Made by a program: the position numbers and the translations under genes. A stretch of 60,523 bases of DNA from a virus (taxonomy: Duplodnaviria > Caudoviricetes), in IMG/VR virus record IMGVR_UViG_3300020171_000030, positions 1 through 60,523 of that record; one strand, written 5' to 3'. Numbering within the stretch: the stretch's first letter is position 1; the number at the start of each line of letters is the position of its first letter. A model generated the notes under the pieces. It did not search any database. It was not told the origin of the DNA and was given only the letters and a program-made list of their open reading frames with translations. Below are positions 13,753 to 48,232 of the stretch, piece after piece.

Positions 13753-13859
13753 AACAGGCTCCTTATTTATTAAGATAACTTAATTCATCACCCATACCAC
13801 TCCCACACAATAGTAGACCTCATACATCATAGCCATCATCTTATCCCATTCATTCTTAT

Positions 13860-14321
13860 TCATCTCTTCTCCACATTCGGTATCCTCTGCTCATATATAG
13901 TATTAAGTTGAGAGATGGCATCATCCACTTTTCTTTCACCATAGGAAGTCCAGAGGATATTTATTTCTTTCTTCTTCCCCGTTAAATATAGTTTAAGTAG
14001 ATTGGTTAATACTTCCCTCACCTTCTCATCCCTCGATTTCTGGGGTTCTTCGGACACTTGGGATTGCTTCATCATCGCCAATTTGCAGAGGTGCAAGGCT
14101 TCGTTGAAATTGTCAATTCTACAACCACAATATGATGCTGGTTCAGCTACCATATCACAATTACAAAACTTTTTCTCTCTTTCCTCTGGCATCCCCTTTA
14201 CATTGAGGTATTGCTGGGCGAGGTCAATAAGTAATTTTATTTCTTTCACTCTCATTCTTGCACTACTGTCATACCACTTTTGAACTTGTTCCACCGCCTC
14301 TTTTATCCCTTGCTCATTCAT
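13860..14321 (-). CDS. Hypothetical protein
   Basis: ORF on early strand with RBS. Confidence 0.5.
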   Translation of the reverse strand: MNEQGIKEAVEQVQKWYDSSARMRVKEIKLLIDLAQQYLNVKGMPEEREKKFCNCDMVAEPASYCGCRIDNFNEALHLCKLAMMKQSQVSEEPQKSRDEKVREVLTNLLKLYLTGKKKEINILWTSYGERKVDDAISQLNTIYEQRIPNVEKR

Positions 14322-15106
14322 TTTCCGCCTCCGAGTTCTTCTATGGTGATGCAGACTTCCGTATCAGCAAATCCCAATTCATATTCTCTGTTCTCTGGGA
14401 TAACTAATTCTTTAAAACCACCAGCAGGATGTTCCTTTTTCTTAAAATTATATTCCCATTCGTGATTAACCCAAACAACAAACCTTTTCCTCCTACCCTT
14501 TGCCATTTTTAACCCTCCTGTGAGTGTTCGTCCTTTGTTGCCAAGTTTTCTGGCTTATAATCTTCACAATTTAGATATGGATAACCAGGACATCTCCTAA
14601 GCACATTAACCCCTAAGTTACATTCTAACTGATATCCATCACGATTATGCACTTGCCATACACATCTTTCTTTCACTTCTTCCCCTCCTGTAAATTTGGG
14701 TTTAAATATTCATCTTTATAAGCAGGGTCATAATTCCAAACCTTTTCAACATTGATTTTTGTTTCCTTGAGAGGCGTTTCACTTGTTCCTAAAACCTCTC
14801 GTCCATTTTTCCACCAAGCAAATGCGGTAAGACCATCAATAAAACCTTGTTTATATTCTTTCACTTCTTCCCCTCCTGTTCAAAAAGGTTGGCAATCTCT
14901 CTCACATTCCCCCCTTATCCCATTCATTAAGAAAAGATTGTCTTACTTCTGGACTTCCAGCAATTTTTGAGGCTAACTTTCTTATCACTTTCTCGTCTTT
15001 TGGACTAATGATATAAAATAATTTTGCCCAACTCTTTTCTAAAAGAAAAAAATTAATAATAATATCAGTAATAGACTTCACTATTTCCTTCATCTCCCCT
15101 CCTTTT

Positions 15107-15373
15107 TTACCCCTGGGCTATGGCGGATTCTAAAATTTGTTCTATGGGAGACTTTGTTTCTTCTCCCGTGGTAGTTAATTCATATCCACTCTCTACACAT
15201 AAAAATCTTCCCGTAATCTGTGCTGCATTTACAAATTTAGTTAGTTTCTTTCGGGCTTCTTTTTGGCTTCTTCCCTTAAAAACATAATCGGTTCTTTTCC
15301 ACGGAGAAAAAAGAAAAGATTGGTCTCTTAAACTTCGTTGCCACCACATATAATATGTTTTAAATTTATTCAT
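15107..15373 (-). CDS. Hypothetical protein ending within a repeat element (…SAIAQG*)
   Basis: GAGG RBS; stop codon lies inside the R repeat. Confidence 0.55.
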   Translation of the reverse strand: MNKFKTYYMWWQRSLRDQSFLFSPWKRTDYVFKGRSQKEARKKLTKFVNAAQITGRFLCVESGYELTTTGEETKSPIEQILESAIAQG

Positions 15374-15945
15374 TTTAACCTCTCTTTGTGGTATCTTTAC
15401 CCTTGGGCTGATGGCAGTTGGTCTGCAATATTCTCACCATTGAACCTCATATTTGGCTACCACGCCACACCAGCCCAGAGGGTTATTTTCTTTTTAGTTG
15501 ATAAAATTTATCTTTACTCGGCACTTTCTCCATTATCCAGTCGGCGGCGGCTTGGGATAAAATTCTTAGTAATGCTTTAGAATATTTAGATGTCTCTATG
15601 TCTATATATTTATAACAAATCTTCTCAATCTCCGCCGCTATCTTTGATTTTGTGTCCATTAGTTTTATCCTTTTCTTATAATAAATTCTCCATAAATATA
15701 TTTTGTAGTTTTAACTCCTATTATTTTTCTCATTTAATTACCTCCCAGTTTTATTCGTTGTCGTCAGGTTTTCCGTCTTCGTATGTATAACAAGTCGGCG
15801 TATTATTTGTCGAAGCGTCAATTTCTGTTTCATCATTGCTACATTGAAAACGATTTACACCTTCTTTTTCCCCTTTATCTTGGTTATAAATACAATCTGT
15901 CATATTACAGGTTATTATTTTATTCATTCTTCACCTCCTCCTTTT

Positions 15946-16485
15946 TTACCCCTGGGCTGATGGCAGGGATAAATCCACAAAATTTAATTGATTGGGTAAA
16001 TTTAATTTCCAACAAAACCAAGCAACCTGAAACCAAGCACCTGATCCTTTACCTGATGGAGTAATGAAATTTATTCTTTTATTTGGAATAATTAACTCTA
16101 TACCGTATCTTTTATATAACGAACCTCTCTTTTTCCCTTCAAGTGCAGTTAAAGGTAAAAGAAAAGCAAATGGACTATTTAATTTATAAGCTCTCGCTAA
16201 AAATTTATCTTTGAGAGAATAAGGTGGATTTGTAATTATACAATCATAAGGAAAAGACATTGAATCTGTAAGAAAGTCAAGCCGATGTCCATATTTTCCA
16301 TTTATATCTGTTCCTAAAACCTTAAATCCTGCTTCTTCTAAAAATGTATATAAGTTGCCATTCCCCCAAGCACACTCCCATATTTGCCAATCTTTTTTAA
16401 GATAGGGCAATAGTATATCAAGTGCTTCTTTGGGTGTTTGAAAATTGTCAGGACGACCATTACTTTGTATATTAAGTTTTTTCAT
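15946..16485 (-). CDS. DNA N6-adenine methyltransferase (small, phage type)
   Basis: FQTP, WECAWGNG SAM-binding motif, IITNPPYS catalytic motif. Confidence 0.85.
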   Translation of the reverse strand: MKKLNIQSNGRPDNFQTPKEALDILLPYLKKDWQIWECAWGNGNLYTFLEEAGFKVLGTDINGKYGHRLDFLTDSMSFPYDCIITNPPYSLKDKFLARAYKLNSPFAFLLPLTALEGKKRGSLYKRYGIELIIPNKRINFITPSGKGSGAWFQVAWFCWKLNLPNQLNFVDLSLPSAQG

Positions 16486-16915
16486 CCTTATCCTTTCCGA
16501 GCCACACCAGCCCAGAGGGTTATTTTCTTTTCAACATATAAAACCTATCCTTCCAATCCTGGTCTTCAAGTTTTCTGCGACAAGAACAGCCGTGGTCTGA
16601 GCCACAATATCCACAAACTTTAATCTTCTTAAGTTTATTCTTTTCCATATTATAATCCTCATATACCTGTGGCAGTTCTAATGCTAAACTTATACTATCT
16701 ATTTTATCTAAATCGTTCATTTTATTTATCATATCTGTTATTATCCCCATAAAGTAACGAAGAAATAGAAACTGGAAAAGGGTTTCTTCGAGGCAATAAA
16801 GGAGGTGCGGTATGTCTTTGCAGACGATATGCACCGCTAACGAGCATGGGATCTCGTTCCGTTTCTGCCTGAAGGGTCAATTCTTACTTTATGGGAGATG
16901 TCAACATTTTAAATC

Positions 16916-17650
16916 TTACTCGGTTTTATCTTCTTCTGTCAACTCTACATCGATGTCTTTCTTCCTGCGGTAAAGCATATCAAAAAAATTCTTGGCTATC
17001 ATATACTCTTCATCTTCACAACGCCTGTTGAAATTGATTACCGGCACGGCGTAAGTTCCTTTATCCCCTTTAACGATTTCTGATTTTAGTGTATACACTC
17101 TAGCGAACATATCTTCACCGGAGAACCGAGCCATTGAAAGAAGTTCTTTCGCTGTCTTTATTGCGGTACGCATTAGAGAAAGAGAAATCGGGAACTGGTT
17201 GAGTTTACCGACAAGCATTACTGGAAAGTTGTATACTATGCTGAATGTAGGCGGCTGATCCCCATCCCAATCTGAACCTGGGACTTCTTCGACCGGCCTA
17301 TCTAAGTATTCAGAGAACTCATCAATCGCCATAGTTACGGTTACGTTGTCTCGCGACATCATTACTAACCCTCTTTCAATATCGAATTGAGCCCGAGTCT
17401 TAAACATGAACAACGGGATAAAATCAATCTCGTCTCCGTAAACTTCTTTAGTCAAGGAATTACCGAGTTGCCCCATTCTTGCCTTGCCGTCAATAACAAC
17501 TTCTGAAAGACCTTGCAGTATAGATAACCTGGCAATTTTGATATCCCCTTCCTCTATTTCGTCAAAACCTGCAGGTAGATTTTTTTCTCCGGAGATACGC
17601 GGTACGAGAGCGCCTTCCTTTTTTATTTCTAACTCTTTATCTTTATCCAT
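16916..17650 (-). CDS. Putative ssDNA-binding / recombination protein
   Basis: GFDEIEEGDIKIARLSILQGLS N-terminus, acidic C-terminal tail, replication context. Confidence 0.45.
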   Translation of the reverse strand: MDKDKELEIKKEGALVPRISGEKNLPAGFDEIEEGDIKIARLSILQGLSEVVIDGKARMGQLGNSLTKEVYGDEIDFIPLFMFKTRAQFDIERGLVMMSRDNVTVTMAIDEFSEYLDRPVEEVPGSDWDGDQPPTFSIVYNFPVMLVGKLNQFPISLSLMRTAIKTAKELLSMARFSGEDMFARVYTLKSEIVKGDKGTYAVPVINFNRRCEDEEYMIAKNFFDMLYRRKKDIDVELTEEDKTE

Positions 17651-17663
17651 TTGAACCCTCCTT

Positions 17664-18062
17664 TTATCCCATTTGTATTGTTATCGTTGGTTTAAAATAA
17701 TACGCGAACACATCTGGAGGTATTGGTTCTCCAGCTTTTAATTTTTCAGAGATAAAAGAAGTTAATGTGCGGTTGTGAATACTAGGCTTTATTAAATCTT
17801 TTCTCCCGCATATCTCATCTATCCAGCGAAACGCTTCTTCTTTTTTGTCTGGTAGAATACTTGCAAATAAAGGTTCCTTTCGGATAACCAAACATTTAAA
17901 TGCTGAACTGCAAAATGTTTTCAGTTCATGGTCATCCATGTATTCTACTAGAGCCATCTCTGCTTTGTCTTTCACCTCTTTGGCCTCCGACAAAGTAGCA
18001 TCTATTTCTTCTACTCTTTGCCGTGCATTAAGGATAGCTTCTAACAGCTCGTTCTCTTTCAT
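17664..18062 (-). CDS. Coiled-coil phage protein (Gp157/Gam-like)
   Basis: N-terminal coiled coil, IH..TL..FI.E....GEPIPP C-terminus. Confidence 0.5.
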   Translation of the reverse strand: MKENELLEAILNARQRVEEIDATLSEAKEVKDKAEMALVEYMDDHELKTFCSSAFKCLVIRKEPLFASILPDKKEEAFRWIDEICGRKDLIKPSIHNRTLTSFISEKLKAGEPIPPDVFAYYFKPTITIQMG

Positions 18063-18963
18063 AAAGTTTCATCTCCTTTCGGTATTCCTTTTCTGTCTTT
18101 TTCCATTTACTATTATTACAATGTGGACATGCTGGTGCTAAGTTTCTATATTCATTTGTCCCTCCTCTCGTTAAAGGTATCTTATGTTCCAAGTGGTCAT
18201 TACCGAATTTAATAGGATTTAAACAAAGGTAACAGGTCAAGGTACCGTATCTTTTAATATTGTTTTCATAAACTCGCTGAATAGTTTTAATAGTTAATTT
18301 ACCAGCTTTTCTCATTAATAACCTTCTTTTTTGAGTATACATTTTATTTCTTATTCTTATTAGCGGATTATTTTTTACAGATTCTCTTCTACGCTTATTT
18401 AAAAAATCTTTATTTTTCTGATAAAATAAGTTTTGGCATAATCTTATTTTTACCTTATTTTTTTGATAATACAATTTATCCCAAATTGGTTTTTGTTTTA
18501 ATAATCTTTTTCTATTTTTCTGTCGATATTTTTTATTGTATTCTTTAATATAATTTCTATTTTTCTTACGCCATTGAGATAACCAAAGTTTTACTTTTTC
18601 TTTATTTTTTATGCGATATTTTTTAAGGATATCTTTACGTCTATTATATATTTGCTTTCCATATTTTTGTTGATAAAGACGATAATACAATGCTATTCTT
18701 TTTTTATTTTTCTTATAATAAAGATAACTTTGTATTGCTCTTTTCTTTTTGTTTTTTTGATGCCATTGTTTATGATATTGGCTTATTTTATCTTTATTTT
18801 GATAATAGTAACGCTTATGATAAACAAGTATTTTTTCTCTATTTTTATCATGATACCGTTTTGAAATTAGTTTTATTTTATCTTTATTTTTTTGTCGCCA
18901 TTGCTTTTGGTATTCTTTATTTTCTTGTCGCCACTGTTTATTGTATTCTTTTTTATCAAACAT
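18028..18963 (-). CDS. HNH homing endonuclease with basic helical repeats
   Basis: CYLC...HLEHKIPL.RGG.N...NLAPACPHCNNSK; repeated Y/W.QKNK units. Confidence 0.9.
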   Translation of the reverse strand: MFDKKEYNKQWRQENKEYQKQWRQKNKDKIKLISKRYHDKNREKILVYHKRYYYQNKDKISQYHKQWHQKNKKKRAIQSYLYYKKNKKRIALYYRLYQQKYGKQIYNRRKDILKKYRIKNKEKVKLWLSQWRKKNRNYIKEYNKKYRQKNRKRLLKQKPIWDKLYYQKNKVKIRLCQNLFYQKNKDFLNKRRRESVKNNPLIRIRNKMYTQKRRLLMRKAGKLTIKTIQRVYENNIKRYGTLTCYLCLNPIKFGNDHLEHKIPLTRGGTNEYRNLAPACPHCNNSKWKKTEKEYRKEMKLYERERAVRSYP

Positions 18964-27720: not shown

Positions 27721-27918
27721 TTATATCCTTTCCTTCCAATAAGTGCTTAATCTCATTTCATCATCTATTTTTGTTTTTTCTTCGAAGATAATTACCTGAA
27801 TTTTATACATAGATAACGGCATGCTTGACCGAGAGAATCTCCAGTTGAAATAATTAAGTATCATCTTCTTCAAACTTTCTTTAAATATTTCTCGCATATA
27901 ATTTCCTTTTTTATAAAG

Positions 27919-27999
27919 TGCCGGAGCTCTGAATCGAACAGAGTTACTTAACACTCATACGATTGAGTGAGTGCCTTTAACCAATTAGGCTACTCCGGC
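27919..27999 (-). tRNA. tRNA-like gene (Leu-like, atypical anticodon arm)
   Basis: Minus strand GCCGGAG-TA-GCCT AATTGGTTAA AGGC ... CTCTG TTCGATT CAGAG-CTCCGGC-A: perfect acceptor, D and T arms; irregular anticodon arm; no encoded CCA. Confidence 0.7.
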
Positions 28000-45583: not shown

Positions 45584-48232
45584 ATGGCAATAAACTTATC
45601 TGGTCTTAATGTAATCAAATTTGATATTTATGCTTCAAGAACAGGAAGTAATATCAAAATCGGCATCCACGACTCTGGCGGAACGACTACGGAAATTACT
45701 CCCAATATCACTTCTGCTAATACATGGCAAGCAGTTTCTTGGGATATTTCTGCTGTTAGTGATGCTAATAAAGATGCCATTGATAGTATTATTGTAACGA
45801 TAGTCAACGCAGACGCAGCGAATACCTTTTATATTGACAATATGCGTGCTGCGATAGCAGATTTGACAGACCAAAATTGGGTCTATTTTGATATTTATTC
45901 GAGTAGGACAGGTTCAAATGTTAAAGTGGGACTTCACGACGCCGATGGCATAACTACGGAAACAACGCCGAATGTCGTTTCAGCAAATAATTGGCAAGGA
46001 GTTAATTGGGACTTCTCTGGCGTTTCTAATGCCAACAAAGATGAAATAGATCAGGTTATAGTTACAGTAGTCAATGCAGATGCGGCCAATACTTTTTATA
46101 TTGATAATATGTTTGGGACAACTACTAGTTCTAGTTCTTCTAGTAGTTCTAGCTCTTCTAGTAGTTCAAAAAGTTCGAGTAGTTCAAGTTCTTCCAGTAG
46201 TTCATTAAGTTCTAGCAGTTCTAGTTCTTCTAGTTCATCAAGTAGTTCATTCAGTTCGAGCAGTTCTAGTTCTTCTAGTTCTTCAAGTAGCTTTAGTAGT
46301 TCAAGCAGTTCCAGTTCCTCAAGTAGTTCCAATAGTTCTAGCTCTTCAAGTTCATCAAGCAGTTCATTCAGCTCAAGCAGTTCTAGTTCTTCGAGTAGTT
46401 CTTTCAGCTCAAGCAGTTCCAGTTCCTCTAGTTCTTCGAGCAGTTCATTCAGCTCAAGCTCTTCCAGTTCTTCAAGCAGTTCAAGCAGTTCATTCAGCTC
46501 AAGCTCTTCCAGTTCTTCAAGCAGTTCAAGCAGTTCATTCAGCTCAAGCTCTTCCAGTTCTTCAAGCAGTTCAAGCAGTTCAAGCAGTTCATTCAGCTCA
46601 AGCTCTTCCAGTTCTTCAAGCAGTTCAAGCAGTTCAGAAAGCTCGAGCAGTTCAAGTTCTTCAAGTTCTTCAAGCAGTTCAGAAAGCTCAAGCAGTTCCA
46701 GTTCTTCAAGTTCTTCAAGCAGTTCAGAAAGCTCGAGCAGTTCAAGTTCTTCAAGCAGTTCAGAAAGTTCGAGCAGTTCAAGTTCTTCAAGTTCTTCAAG
46801 TTCTTCATTCAGCTCGAGCAGTTCAAGTTCTTCAAGTTCTTCATTCAGCTCGAGCAGTTCTAGTTCTTCAAGTTCTTCAAGCAGTTCAGAAAGCTCAAGC
46901 AGTTCCAGTTCTTCAAGTTCTTCAAGCAGTTCAGAAAGCTCGAGCAGTTCAAGTTCTTCAAGTTCTTCATTCAGCTCAAGCAGTTCCAGTTCTTCAAGTT
47001 CTTCAAGCAGTTCAGAAAGCTCGAGCAGTTCAAGTTCTTCAAGCAGTTCTTTCAGCTCGAGCAGTTCTAGTTCTTCCAGTTCTTCAAGCAGTTCTTTCAG
47101 CTCGAGCAGTTCTAGTTCTTCTAGTTCATCAAGCAGTTCATTAAGCTCAAGCAGTTCTAGTTCTTCAAGCAGTTCATTCAGTTCAAGCAGTTCCAGTTCC
47201 TCTAGTTCTTCGAGCAGTTCGTTCAGTTCAAGCAGTTCTAGTTCTTCAAGCAGTTCATTTAGCTCAAGCAGTTCCAGTTCCTCTAGTTCTTCGAGCAGTT
47301 CGTTCAGTTCAAGCAGTTCCAGTTCCTCTAGTTCTTCAAGCAGTTCATTTAGCTCAAGCAGTTCTAGTTCTTCCAGTTCTTCAAGCAGTTCATTCAGCTC
47401 AAGCAGTTCTAGTTCTTCCATCTCTTCAAGCAGTTCATTCAGCTCAAGCAGTTCTAGTTCTTCAAGTTCTTCTAGCAGTTCATTCAGCTCAAGCAGTTCT
47501 AGTTCTTCCAGTTCTTCAAGCAGTTCATTCAGCTCAAGCAGTTCTAGTTCTTCCAGTTCATCAAGCAGTTCATTCAGTTCAAGCAGTTCCAGTTCTTCTA
47601 GTTCTTCTAGTTCTTCTAGCAGTTCATTCAGTTCAAGCTCTTCCAGTTCTTCTAGTTCTTCTAGCAGTTCATTCAGTTCAAGCTCTTCCAGTTCTTCTAG
47701 TTCTTCTAGTTCTTCTAGCAGTTCATTCAGTTCAAGCTCTTCCAGTTCTTCTAGTTCTTCAAGCAGTTCATTCAGTTCAAGCAGTTCCAGTTCTTCAAGT
47801 AGCTCAAGCAGTTCATTCAGCTCAAGCAGTTCCAGTTCTTCAAGCAGTTCAAGCAGTTCATTCAGCTCGAGCAGTTCCAGTTCTTCAAGTAGCTCAAGCA
47901 GTTCATTCAGCTCAAGCAGTTCCAGTTCTTCAAGTAGCTCAAGCAGTTCATTCAGCTCAAGCAGTTCCAGTTCTTCAAGCAGTTCAAGCAGTTCATTCAG
48001 TTCAAGCAGTTCTAGCTCTTCCAGTTCTTCAAGTAGCTCTAGTTCTTCTAGTTCTTCAAGCAGTTCTAGTTCTTCAAGCAGTTCTAGTTCTTCAAGCAGT
48101 TCTAGTTCAGCTTCATCATTACCTCATAAAGTTGAATTTAAGGATAAAACATATAATTATAAATTCAATAATGATACTAGTGATTATAAGTTTAAAGATG
48201 ATACGAGTGATTATAAATTCAAAGAACAGTAA
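45584..48232 (+). CDS. Giant serine-rich protein: two CBM-like repeats + ~664-aa poly-Ser tract + short basic C-terminal repeats
   Basis: Duplicated FDIY.SRTGSN.K.G.HD..G.TTE.TPN..SAN.WQ.V.WD.S.VS.ANKD.ID..IVT.VNADAANTFYIDNM; Ser tract 46127-48118; C-terminus DTSDYKF twice. Confidence 0.8.
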   Translation: MAINLSGLNVIKFDIYASRTGSNIKIGIHDSGGTTTEITPNITSANTWQAVSWDISAVSDANKDAIDSIIVTIVNADAANTFYIDNMRAAIADLTDQNWVYFDIYSSRTGSNVKVGLHDADGITTETTPNVVSANNWQGVNWDFSGVSNANKDEIDQVIVTVVNADAANTFYIDNMFGTTTSSSSSSSSSSSSSSKSSSSSSSSSSSLSSSSSSSSSSSSSSFSSSSSSSSSSSSSFSSSSSSSSSSSSNSSSSSSSSSSSFSSSSSSSSSSSFSSSSSSSSSSSSSSFSSSSSSSSSSSSSSFSSSSSSSSSSSSSSFSSSSSSSSSSSSSSSSSFSSSSSSSSSSSSSSESSSSSSSSSSSSSSESSSSSSSSSSSSSSESSSSSSSSSSSESSSSSSSSSSSSSSFSSSSSSSSSSSFSSSSSSSSSSSSSSESSSSSSSSSSSSSSESSSSSSSSSSSFSSSSSSSSSSSSSSESSSSSSSSSSSFSSSSSSSSSSSSSSFSSSSSSSSSSSSSSLSSSSSSSSSSSFSSSSSSSSSSSSSSFSSSSSSSSSSSFSSSSSSSSSSSSSSFSSSSSSSSSSSSSSFSSSSSSSSSSSSSSFSSSSSSSSISSSSSFSSSSSSSSSSSSSSFSSSSSSSSSSSSSSFSSSSSSSSSSSSSSFSSSSSSSSSSSSSSSSSFSSSSSSSSSSSSSSFSSSSSSSSSSSSSSSSSFSSSSSSSSSSSSSSFSSSSSSSSSSSSSSFSSSSSSSSSSSSSSFSSSSSSSSSSSSSSFSSSSSSSSSSSSSSFSSSSSSSSSSSSSSFSSSSSSSSSSSSSSSSSSSSSSSSSSSSSSSSSSSSSASSLPHKVEFKDKTYNYKFNNDTSDYKFKDDTSDYKFKEQ

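Follow-up and report, generated by a model that had tools for sequence, protein, structure and literature searches.

It is through accessory regions that most unknown genes join or leave phage genomes, and to our knowledge few concrete junction devices have been described in them, the promoter-early stem-loops (PeSLs) of T4-type phages being the main example. PeSLs are said to have been treated also by Comeau et al. in 2014. The question raised by the locus studied here is what kind of junction device two short repeats, L and R, represent. They lie on the minus strand of the window, a 60,523-nucleotide stretch of DNA that makes up the entire virus record IMGVR_UViG_3300020171_000030 (95% complete). 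An initial annotation proposed that L and R are recombination or processing sites for shuffling accessory genes, loosely like integron cassettes.

The accessory region

L and R are found in an accessory (hyperplastic) insertion of ∼3.2 kb (13753..16915, minus strand), which holds 11–12 small ORFs between a conserved 244-aa gene and the primase gene. In 13/14 primase-related loci the homologue of the 244-aa gene is followed directly by the primase, with gaps of ∼85–180 nt, and the 14th locus (L016) is a fragment beginning within the primase. The insertion is absent from 13 relatives. Judged by its sequence, the region is a mosaic in which small ORFs are linked via short conserved junctions, and the record suggests a lytic-looking phage from groundwater. 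A consensus scan placed a sigma-70-like promoter (TTGACA, 18 nt, TAAGAT; 10/12 matches) at the head of the region (16913..16942, minus strand); it is a candidate only, because promoter-like sites are not enriched here over shuffles.

The small Cys-rich ORF o104 (16520..16750 of ORF 16520-16834, minus strand) has its TAA stop inside the first L copy. Homologues with 84–95% amino acid identity stand upstream of L in three other contigs (L021, L022, L024). Pfam and PHROG searches assigned o104 to no family, and an IMG/VR scan found no relative. Between the first R and the second L are three small ORFs of 58, 22 and 58 aa (15483..15927, minus strand). The two 58-aa ORFs had no match in Pfam or PHROG; the last of the three (15483-15659) has its TAA inside the second L and ends in a ∼30-nt copy of the o104 tail (KDKFYQLKRK-stop).

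Further along the minus strand, o63b (14902..15093) shares 97–98% nucleotide identity with otherwise different phages (L019/G004, L021, L022, L024), in which a different conserved junction lies upstream of it. Junction 2 (14856..14895, minus strand) codes for ...ANLFEQE, bears an AGGAGG ribosome-binding site and appears to be another type of conserved gene junction in the same region. Its second 24-nt copy in the window, at 14691-14668, is 100% identical over 24 nt, and L019 and L024 match it at 96% over 27 nt. The complete 45-kb phage G004 has only the L-R module, o63b and 26–45-nt junction patches in common with the window. Genes of the HNH or endonuclease VII-like kind lie within or adjoin the region in the window, L019, L021 and L022.

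The L and R repeats

The 31-nt L is present in two identical copies, L1 (16531-16501) and L2 (15494-15464), both on the minus strand. Its 21-nt core matched the window twice at ≤3 mismatches versus 0 expected (0/100 shuffles gave any match). R has three copies, R1 (15964-15946, exact), R2 (15415-15397, one mismatch) and R3 (15124-15107, one deletion), and no others were found in the whole 60.5-kb record. L and R have a G+C content of 57–63% versus 35.7% for the genome. Homology around L reaches into the end of the upstream ORF, covering 52 nt at 85%, and the R block continues through the ribosome-binding site AAAAAGGAGG, with R1 and R3 agreeing at 88% over 42 nt.

In terms of the structure modelled below, the block at L1 (16501..16552, minus strand) comprises, after the final o104 codons with their TAA, a leader and the 5′ acceptor strand, and runs on into the first part of the D region. 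The block at R1 (15933..15967, minus strand) contains the 3′ T-stem strand, the 3′ acceptor strand, a TAA-bearing trailer and the ribosome-binding site that serves the following ORF; 33 nt of R1 are 100% identical to L021, L022 and L025. L2, its interior and R2 (15395..15485, minus strand) form a tRNA-like module that, although degenerate, is complete; its D-like hairpin is accompanied by a T-like one that is shortened, and a 17-codon mini-ORF lies within. R3 (15094..15125, minus strand) is a solo R with its ribosome-binding site, 1 base shorter than R1, and is joined to the ORF o88 at a GCCAT microhomology.

Three ORFs share an AQG-stop ending, namely the methyltransferase (MTase) ORF (15946-16485, LPSAQG-stop), the mini-ORF (15450-15397, LPSAQG-stop) and the 88-aa o88 (15107-15373, AIAQG-stop). 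The mini-ORF itself is unlikely to be a gene. A mini-ORF that begins with ATG in the same frame occurs in 2/5 small elements (window L2-R2 and L025) and is missing in L022, L019 and L005. In minimum-free-energy folds L2 and R2 pair locally (−36.2 kcal/mol, z −3.07), and L1 and R1 pair across the 540-nt MTase gene, where the z score of the whole stretch is only −1.35. The initial annotation had described these minus-strand positions, the pairing of L with R, an AQG-stop supplied by R, the stop of ORF 16520-16834 within L and a ribosome-binding site following R, and each of these was confirmed.

The hairpin was rejected as a sense-strand terminator, since R is followed by an A run and not a U run. 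On the opposite strand a T-rich tail accompanies only the two L copies of the window and is not kept in L019, L022, L024 or L025.

A predicted tRNA-like structure

Structure models present L and R as the outer parts, the 5′ half and the 3′ half, of a tRNA-like module of ∼100 nt that takes up the gene junction, and the sequence suggests derivation from tRNA-Thr. In the intact copies (L022, L025) an acceptor stem of 7–8 bp, GCUGGUG/CAUCAGC, abuts a perfect T arm with a UUCRAAU loop. These copies scored 24.0 and 26.6 bits with the Rfam tRNA model versus a cut-off of 29, and their fold z scores were −4.3 and −5.1. The 21-nt string formed by the T arm and 3′ acceptor strand also occurs in ARAGORN-called tRNA-Thr genes of three contigs (L029, L035, L036), and the same tRNA-Thr gene is intact by eye in two others (L033, L034).

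A covariance model was built from the L022 and L025 copies. It matched the window L2-R2 element at 39.1 bits (E 6e-7), the L019 element at 47.7 bits, and a diverged copy, type B, in L005 and its 63.8-kb relatives at 26.3 bits (E 9e-4). The primase of these type-B relatives is ∼71% identical. In type B two acceptor pairs have changed on both sides (C-G to U-A and U-A to C-G) and the acceptor stem is kept; the T stem is retained, a hairpin occupies the D position, and the leader-trailer extension of the acceptor stem is missing. Across five sequences, which represent two sequence types only and were aligned by fitting to the model, 95.4% of cells pair and 13/32 pairs change on both sides (0/500 shuffles equalled this). 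A 7-bp acceptor stem stacked on a 5-bp T stem with a 7-nt consensus-type T loop was seen in L022, L025 and L005. The window L2-R2 element has a 4-bp T-like stem with a 5-nt loop, and neither it nor L1...R1 has a canonical T arm.

No element of either type combines a canonical anticodon arm (5-bp stem, 7-nt loop) with a GG-bearing D loop. In type A the D hairpin is 8 bp long with a loop of 3 nt, and the hairpin in the middle has a 6-nt loop; type B has a D arm and 52 nt in place of the anticodon arm. With default settings ARAGORN called a tRNA in 0/5 L-R elements and likewise no tmRNA, and the tRNA-Sec model gave 24.6 bits versus a cut-off of 47. A decoding tRNA was rejected on the missing anticodon arm, the score below the Rfam cut-off and the negative ARAGORN result. 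Rfam searched over the whole window gave nothing at gathering score and chance-level matches only around L and R. A whole-record search with the RNA model is uninformative, being silent even in a genome that carries the type-B copy.

All type-A copies beyond the window came from the metagenome contigs of a single sample. IMG/VR scans returned only L003 with the L and R patterns, one true phage tRNA-Thr with a T-arm pattern, and only the 63.8-kb group with a degenerate A/B pattern. Genome scans with o88 and with the primase gave no match. Exact searches of 185,579 species genomes gave 1 chance match to the L 20-mer and 13 to the R 19-mer, all in unrelated genes without a partner repeat, and a host repeat or host tRNA copy was rejected as the source of L and R because the contexts of all these matches are unrelated. 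Four G+C-rich metagenome matches to L (L020, L023, L026, L027) were set aside, since they represent the conserved coding stretch that is also matched in L018. Assembly via 30–50-nt repeats could mis-link upstream and downstream genes, but it could not invent interiors.

In the sequencing run that best represents this sequence, unitigs end at L and R, where depth is 2–3 times that of the flanks. Two further observations are weak hints only: joints at L/R that come from contigs, with short sides of 24–47 nt and an undefined stretch between the two sides, and coverage gaps in runs X2–X4.

Cargo and joints

Seven different interiors are bounded by identical L and R in the window and related metagenome contigs. 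Four are small structured RNAs (one common to L022 and L025, and those of window L2-R2, L019 and the type-B copy of L005), and three are ORFs, namely the MTase of the window, an ORFan and, in L021, an HNH/endonuclease VII-like gene that has a promoter of its own. The genes that follow R and its ribosome-binding site are of 7 different kinds, and those upstream are of four kinds. The expectation that relatives would carry L and R with other intervening genes was thus borne out, and the downstream genes differ too. While L and R are 100% identical across contigs, the flanking o104 gene has 84–91% nucleotide identity.

The DNA methyltransferase gene (15946..16485, minus strand) lies between L1 and R1 and obtains its last 7 codons (SLPSAQG-stop) from R1. 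It matches phrog_799 (E 6e-42, residues 12–160). Its homologues end in ...LNFV(D/E)L followed by unrelated tails, and neither L nor R was present at 8 other phage loci with MTase homologues. The second cargo ORF of the window, o88 (88 aa; 15107..15373, minus strand), takes only its final AQG-stop from R3, and the native end of its family is ...EQILESAI (14 aligned members including the window protein). The endonuclease cargo of L021 brings a promoter (TTGACA-17-TATAAT) and keeps the entire T arm, and the ORFan cargo has its own stop 4 nt ahead of R. No promoter-like site turned up in a consensus scan within L2-R2, at L1 or at R1.

On the left-hand side, every interior is joined within ∼5 nt after GTGTGG. 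This is tighter than random entry into a ∼58-nt interior would give and is suggestive of a directed break or of a step that is site-specific. The right-hand joints of the four ORF cargos fall at four different positions, with R fused at differing points to the native C-termini of the MTase and o88, which argues against a single site-specific crossover and for exchange driven by homology or microhomology. Since the middle of a tRNA-like gene has been replaced by different protein genes in neighbouring phages, the module marks a hot spot for swapping accessory genes.

Proposed cargo exchange and its alternatives

The balance of probability tilts towards a reading of the repeats, tRNA-like architecture, variable cargo and accessory region in which L and R are halves of a tRNA-like junction module that act as homology arms for cassette exchange. 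The module runs from the upstream TAA through a leader, an 8-bp acceptor-type stem and a trailer up to the following gene's Shine-Dalgarno sequence and start codon; within the stem lie the D-like hairpin, the variable middle and the T arm. The halves with their attached ribosome-binding site, 100% conserved among co-occurring phages, could serve as portable homology arms. Homologous recombination between phages in L and in R may exchange the intervening cargo, and recombination in R and the ribosome-binding site may exchange the downstream genes. The first entry of cargo into the interior may have been through illegitimate joining or joining at microhomologies, and the HNH endonucleases abundant here could have triggered it. 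In-frame ORFs would read into R and borrow its TAA, giving the common AQG-stop ending. Because L and R are still complementary, every cargo would be bracketed automatically by a long-range stem, and the RNA may have a function of its own. The proposal that L and R are shuffling sites for accessory genes thus holds as far as the variable cargo goes; they look like halves of a tRNA-like gene and not like autonomous recombination boxes.

Exchange is read here from the comparison of sequences, and no event has been seen directly. The 100% identity of L and R beside a diverged o104 is also expected from a recombinase site or from strong sequence-specific selection.

An alternative we consider unlikely is site-specific capture of cassettes at a tRNA-derived attachment site, where R would be the att or attC-like core. 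A recombinase supplied from outside, by the host or by another phage, would insert and excise cassettes in circular form, and the core would consist of the 3′ T stem, the 3′ acceptor strand and a CCA-like end. A tRNA-like anchor followed by cassette-R units (L2-x-R2-o88-R3), like tandem insertions at tRNA genes, is what this predicts, and R does occur three times in series, each time ending an ORF, with the solo R3 after an intact module. Similar partial 3′ tRNA-Thr copies flank inserted DNA in Selenomonadaceae genomes, and both the clustered left joints and the identity of L and R beside diverging flanks would fit. Neither family of recombinase was detected, in agreement with the initial annotation, which had seen none in the window: tyrosine recombinase (PF00589) gave no match in the whole 95%-complete record, although all control genomes matched, and no serine recombinase or resolvase was detectable in it. 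The four ORF cargos have four right-joint positions, the o88 joint being a microhomology inside the native C-terminus. Moreover, MTase, endonuclease and ORFan cargos sit between the 5′ and 3′ halves with no rebuilt tRNA-like gene, which argues against capture since integration at a 3′ core would not give that. A reading of the sequences also found no integron core motifs.

Slightly more doubtful is the proposal that function at the RNA level is primary. A polycistronic early or accessory transcript would be cut at the L:R helix, with the T arm or without it, by tRNA-maturation enzymes (RNase P or Z) or by RNase III, to separate cistrons and set mRNA ends; conservation of this processing signal would reflect its role, and the cargo would vary incidentally. 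In each of the 7 L-R pairs the module lies exactly between the stop codon and the Shine-Dalgarno sequence. It forms a G+C-rich island within an A+T-rich genome, its structure is kept via compensatory change in a distant relative, and the predicted fold of the MTase transcript has the long-range L1:R1 stem. Yet purifying selection on a stem leaves unrelated interiors beside 100% identical arms unexplained, the MTase, ORFan and window L2-R2 versions lack the canonical T arm that RNase P/Z normally require, and the type-B copy is without the leader-trailer extension.

A family of small transposable elements, MITE-like when short and cargo-bearing when long, with L and R as terminal inverted repeats that insert at TAA and duplicate it, is very improbable: the ∼19-nt imperfect inverted repeat, the interiors unrelated between copies and the TAA abutting both sides in 7/7 L-R pairs would suit it, but all copies are at gene junctions in the accessory region, target duplication is indistinguishable because the flanking TAA and ribosome-binding site belong to the conserved block, an empty site was not found, the scans for the two recombinase families brought no transposase to light, the 185,579 species genomes gave only the chance matches above, and the intact interiors are tRNA-like with conserved structure, unlike the MITE expectation.

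The homology-arm reading may be carried a step further, into a conjecture that we put forward as improbable. A tRNA-shaped RNA gene would act as a gene dock whose loop takes foreign ORFs, with host tRNA enzymes releasing or stabilising each and the arms permitting exchange. By analogy, a captured gene may be transcribed inside a tRNA-like precursor, as a phage counterpart of mitochondrial tRNA punctuation, and at the DNA level the two arms may allow cargo exchange among unrelated co-infecting phages. The module may also be one member of a broader class of tRNA-derived cassette systems, so far undescribed, among groundwater bacteria and their phages. A search of the literature for tRNA-like cassette junctions in phages, supplements excepted, found nothing relevant; unnamed tRNA-like candidates are reported in PMC10690425.

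These uncultivated groundwater phages appear to have a different kind of junction device, a tRNA-like gene with interchangeable cargo (a DNA methyltransferase and an endonuclease among others) set between its conserved halves, and otherwise unrelated phages have this device in common. If the arms are exchange handles, they would explain the spread of anti-restriction and selfish genes within the phage community and would provide a search key for such cargo. If the RNA is also processed as a tRNA-like molecule, it would represent a new mode of phage transcript punctuation.

Comparison with known systems

Free-standing homing endonuclease genes occur in phage tRNA gene regions, as with T4 segB and the F-Tfl enzymes of T5. 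The HNH/endonuclease VII-like gene of L021, with its sigma-70 promoter inside a tRNA-like gene and more HNH genes near, resembles them. Unlike those cases, the other cargos here are a methyltransferase and ORFans, and the putative target is a non-canonical tRNA-like gene.

The closest analogue of the module appears to be the PeSL. In Arbiol et al. 2010 (PMC2839356), PeSLs of T4-type phages are laid out as stop codon, stem-loop, Shine-Dalgarno and start in hyperplastic regions, mediate modular shuffling, give rise to mini-circles when they recombine with one another, and are defined by a strong sigma-70 promoter and a terminator hairpin. On that description PeSLs and the L-R module are both repeated intergenic modules that reach from the upstream stop to the start of the next, usually ORFan, gene, and both bound insertions, deletions and replacements between close relatives. 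PeSLs as described there carry a promoter, whereas the small L-R modules do not; the PeSL hairpin is a terminator, whereas that of L-R is a ∼100-nt tRNA-like multi-branch structure; and L-R cargo, unlike that reported for PeSLs, also lies inside the stem between its strands and not just between modules.

The acceptor stem and T arm of the module are identical to those of tRNA-Thr genes, and the solo R3 after inserted DNA resembles the partial tRNA-Thr copies that serve as att repeats of integrating elements. A direct repeat (R2/R3) is present. Unlike tRNA-att elements, the module has no integrase or resolvase and no fixed crossover, and its cargo lies between the 5′ and 3′ halves.

The suggested loose likeness to integron cassettes did not stand. 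Like attC, the module has an imperfect hairpin right after ORFs in which the ends are conserved and the centre varies, and single-gene units in the region differ between relatives. The hairpin ends read ...AATAACC and GGGGTAAAA, however, and by eye neither fits the RYYYAAC/GTTRRRY cores. There is no IntI, the genes are in the hairpin loop and not between hairpins, and the joints vary.

Precedents for structured elements between genes are the RNase III sites of T7-like phages and the tRNA punctuation of mitochondrial transcripts, in which, as here, repeated structured elements stand exactly between cistrons. The long-range stem that brackets a whole gene also recalls rRNA precursors. What sets the L-R module apart from these RNA-level systems is extreme identity combined with unrelated interiors, which points to DNA exchange and not to selection on RNA alone.

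Repeats L and R in the window

The record is a whole virus record, ~95% complete, and the public runs that best hold it are labelled groundwater metagenomes. In 13 primase-related loci (69-75% identity) a 244-aa gene is directly followed by the primase gene; a 14th, L016, is a fragment starting inside primase. Because these 13 relatives have the 244-aa gene directly before primase, window 13753-16915 is a 3.2-kb accessory insertion with 11-12 small ORFs. The only insertion ORF with a family match was a 179-aa ORF, a DNA methyltransferase (MTase; phrog_799, E 6e-42).

The minus-strand layout proposed in the initial annotation was recovered from the sequence in the same order. The ORF o104 is followed by the first left repeat, L1 (16531-16501), the MTase ORF and the first right repeat, R1 (15966-15946). 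Three short ORFs lead to L2 (15494-15464) and a 17-codon ORF whose end lies in R2 (to 15397). Next come an 88-aa ORF (o88) ending in R3 (15125-15107) and a 63-aa ORF (o63b). The 21-nt core of L has two copies and no others in the 60.5-kb record, and 0/100 shuffled sequences contained a match. One of the three R copies is exact, one has 1 mismatch and one has 1 deletion. Homology of L reaches 52 nt into the tail of the upstream ORF, while that of R takes in the whole AAAAAGGAGG ribosome-binding site. The G+C content of the repeats, 57-63%, compares with 35.7% for the genome. As had been claimed, predicted folds pair L with R, locally in L2-R2 (-36.2 kcal/mol, z -3.07) and at long range across the 540-nt MTase gene.

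The tRNA-like element

Metagenomes were scanned with 20 nt of L, which returned nine loci. Five were A+T-rich phage contigs carrying L with R downstream; the four G+C-rich loci were chance matches in one conserved coding stretch. In loci L022 and L025 the L-to-R distance is only 58 nt, and the whole element is predicted to fold as a tRNA-like cloverleaf (z scores -4.3 and -5.1). The T stem (5 bp, UUCRAAU loop) lies immediately next to the acceptor stem, GCUGGUG/CAUCAGC, which is extended by leader-trailer pairing. A hairpin occupies the D position, and a middle hairpin has a 6-nt loop. The two copies scored 24.0 and 26.6 bits with the Rfam tRNA model versus a cut-off of 29, and were rejected by ARAGORN at default settings. 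The module looks tRNA-Thr-derived because the string comprising the T-arm and 3' acceptor is identical to that of genuine tRNA-Thr genes from unrelated bacteria and one phage.

A covariance model built on these two intact copies matched window L2-R2 (39.1 bits), the L019 element (47.7 bits) and, in the 63.8-kb relatives, an element 3 kb downstream of primase (26.3 bits, E 9e-4). The last, a diverged type-B copy, is preceded by a stop codon and followed by a ribosome-binding site. Its acceptor stem is spelled differently: two pairs have changes in both strands. The T stem is unchanged, the D stem has 6 bp and the middle is longer. In an alignment of only five sequences of two sequence types, fitted to the model, 95.4% of cells pair and 13/32 pairs show a double change, which 0/500 shuffles reached. 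With high confidence, L and R are assigned to a tRNA-like RNA gene, which is not a decoding tRNA: L forms its leader and 5' acceptor strand, and R its trailer together with the 3' strands of the T and acceptor stems.

Several partial tRNA-Thr(CGT) copies were seen in Selenomonadaceae MAG loci (L028, L030, L031, L032). They are att-type repeats of the kind classical for integrated elements, reaching from the anticodon loop to the 3' end, terminator included, and the intact gene (L033, L034) stands separately.

Cargo between identical arms

All copies were aligned on L and on R. The left identical block runs from the upstream TAA to 0-5 nt past GTGTGG, and the right one from CTGCC, or further in for some copies, to 1-5 nt before the next start codon. 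The check suggested initially, a search of related phages for the repeats with other intervening genes, revealed different interiors between identical arms. The interior is the intact tRNA-like element in L022 and L025, another small structured sequence in each of window L2-R2 and L019, and the MTase gene in the window. In L021 it consists of a 128-aa endonuclease gene (phrog_2340, E 9e-16, plus endonuclease VII families) with a perfect TTGACA-17-TATAAT promoter; the ORF crosses the retained T arm, enters R and terminates in ILPSAQG*. In L024 it is an ORFan of ~95 aa, which has a stop codon of its own 4 nt short of R. The gene upstream of L is an o104 homologue in window L1, L021, L022 and L024. 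At window L2 this position is taken by an ORF bearing 30 nt copied from the end of o104, and in L019 and L025 by unrelated genes. R is followed by seven different genes. The type-A copies outside the window, spelled as in L022 and L025, all come from one set of metagenome contigs, in which links across 30-50-nt repeats may be mis-assembled; each interior is nevertheless joined to L and R on both sides.

The shared C-terminal ending

The shared AQG* ending is a by-product: only one frame of three meets the TAA in R, and ORFs entering in that frame borrow it. MTase homologues (15 inspected of 1511 found) end in ...LNFV(D/E)L followed by unrelated short tails, and the native end of the o88 family is ...EQILESAI plus 2-4 varied residues. 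Both results confirm the by-product reading. The o88 family ending also places the joint of R3 with o88 at a GCCAT microhomology.

One MTase homologue, P0013 (11 member sequences), ends in ...KPNLAQG, with AQG as in the ending given by R, and may mark a diverged R elsewhere. Two IMG/VR loci from other phages (L065, L069) have a homologous MTase gene with the ending ...SSQA*. Here the gene lies between another conserved pair of hairpin-bearing sequences, with GGGTATC motifs on either side; this pair may represent a second family of junctions for the same kind of cargo.

Proposed exchange of cassettes

The o104 flanks are 84-91% identical versus 100% in the arms, and the switch from arm to interior is sharp, from 100% to no similarity. 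Because the two occur side by side, the interiors must have been exchanged by recombination rather than have diverged in place. In the simplest model, the module halves and the ribosome-binding site would serve as homology patches for the exchange, deletion and duplication of cassettes among co-infecting phages; illegitimate joining would account for the initial capture of cargo. The left joints, which cluster within ~5 nt, fit this model poorly, and an endonuclease break there or a site-specific step would explain them. Capture of cassettes in the manner of att sites or integrons is unlikely, since the right-hand joints differ between cargos, one lying at a microhomology, which argues against one fixed crossover. 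In agreement with the initial annotation, which saw no recombinase, family searches of the whole ~95% complete record detected neither a tyrosine nor a serine recombinase. That the repeats are RNA-processing sites is about as unlikely. A transposon is the least likely of these three readings.

The accessory region as a whole is a mosaic. L003/L019 is part of a complete 45-kb phage, G004, whose replication module differs from that of the window; apart from the L-R module and o63b (97-98%), only several patches of 26-45 nt at gene junctions are common to both. A second junction type, coding for ...ANLFEQE and including AGGAGG, has two copies in the window and precedes o63b in L019, L021, L022 and L024. 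The unitigs of the best-holding run end precisely at L and R, and depth in the L and R bins is 2-3x that of the flanks. Some of its contigs join across the MTase and other cassettes; the joints have short sides and support the mosaic only weakly. HNH endonuclease genes are frequent (window 18028-18963, L019, L021, L022).

Further patches of 38-45 nt with 88-100% identity to a different, complete 45-kb phage were seen at window 14313-14350, 14058-14101 and 14182-14222 (minus strand) and in L072 (753-1304). At least one spans a gene junction, where an ...EELGGGK* tail includes the ribosome-binding site of the next gene, with an ATGA overlap; these patches coincide with contig joints in the holding run.

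Other elements

The window HNH endonuclease (minus strand, 311 aa) matches several PHROG HNH families, and its N-terminal two thirds are 45-nt periodic repeats rich in Lys/Asn/Tyr. In L022 (360-1190, plus strand) a 93-aa phrog_419 ORF precedes an HNH endonuclease ORF whose last ~20 residues match phrog_419 again; it looks as if the endonuclease gene was inserted into a phrog_419 gene.

At window 27918-27999 (minus strand) ARAGORN called a tRNA with a 4-base 'anticodon' (aatc), or, with the intron option, tRNA-Arg(ccg) carrying an intron of 3 nt. Its anticodon loop has ~10 nt and the score is below the Rfam gathering score. It may be a phage tRNA of an unusual or suppressor type. At 46082-47734 and 1194-1632 there are long arrays of 9-nt periodicity, which on the minus strand encode acidic leucine repeats of the (ELLEELE)n type; one of them sits in an open frame at least 675 aa long.

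Comparison with known systems

A search of the literature, supplements aside, turned up no account of a tRNA-like junction module that encloses genes between its two halves. The module is not a canonical tRNA, having no anticodon arm and scoring below detection thresholds. The loose comparison with integron cassettes in the initial annotation fails, as the core motifs of attC and an integrase are absent and the cargo lies in the hairpin loop. Nor is it an integrase att repeat, given its variable joints and absence of an integrase. For a MITE the signs are mixed: an inverted repeat and flanking TAA occur in all 7 L-R pairs, every copy lies at a gene junction, and no empty site was found. For the promoter-early stem-loops (PeSLs) of T4-type phages, a stop, stem-loop, Shine-Dalgarno, start lay-out has been described and cassette exchange at the repeated modules shown (PMC2839356). 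Our module shares the lay-out described there, but it has no promoter and therefore does not belong to the PeSLs. By analogy, it would work most like a PeSL.
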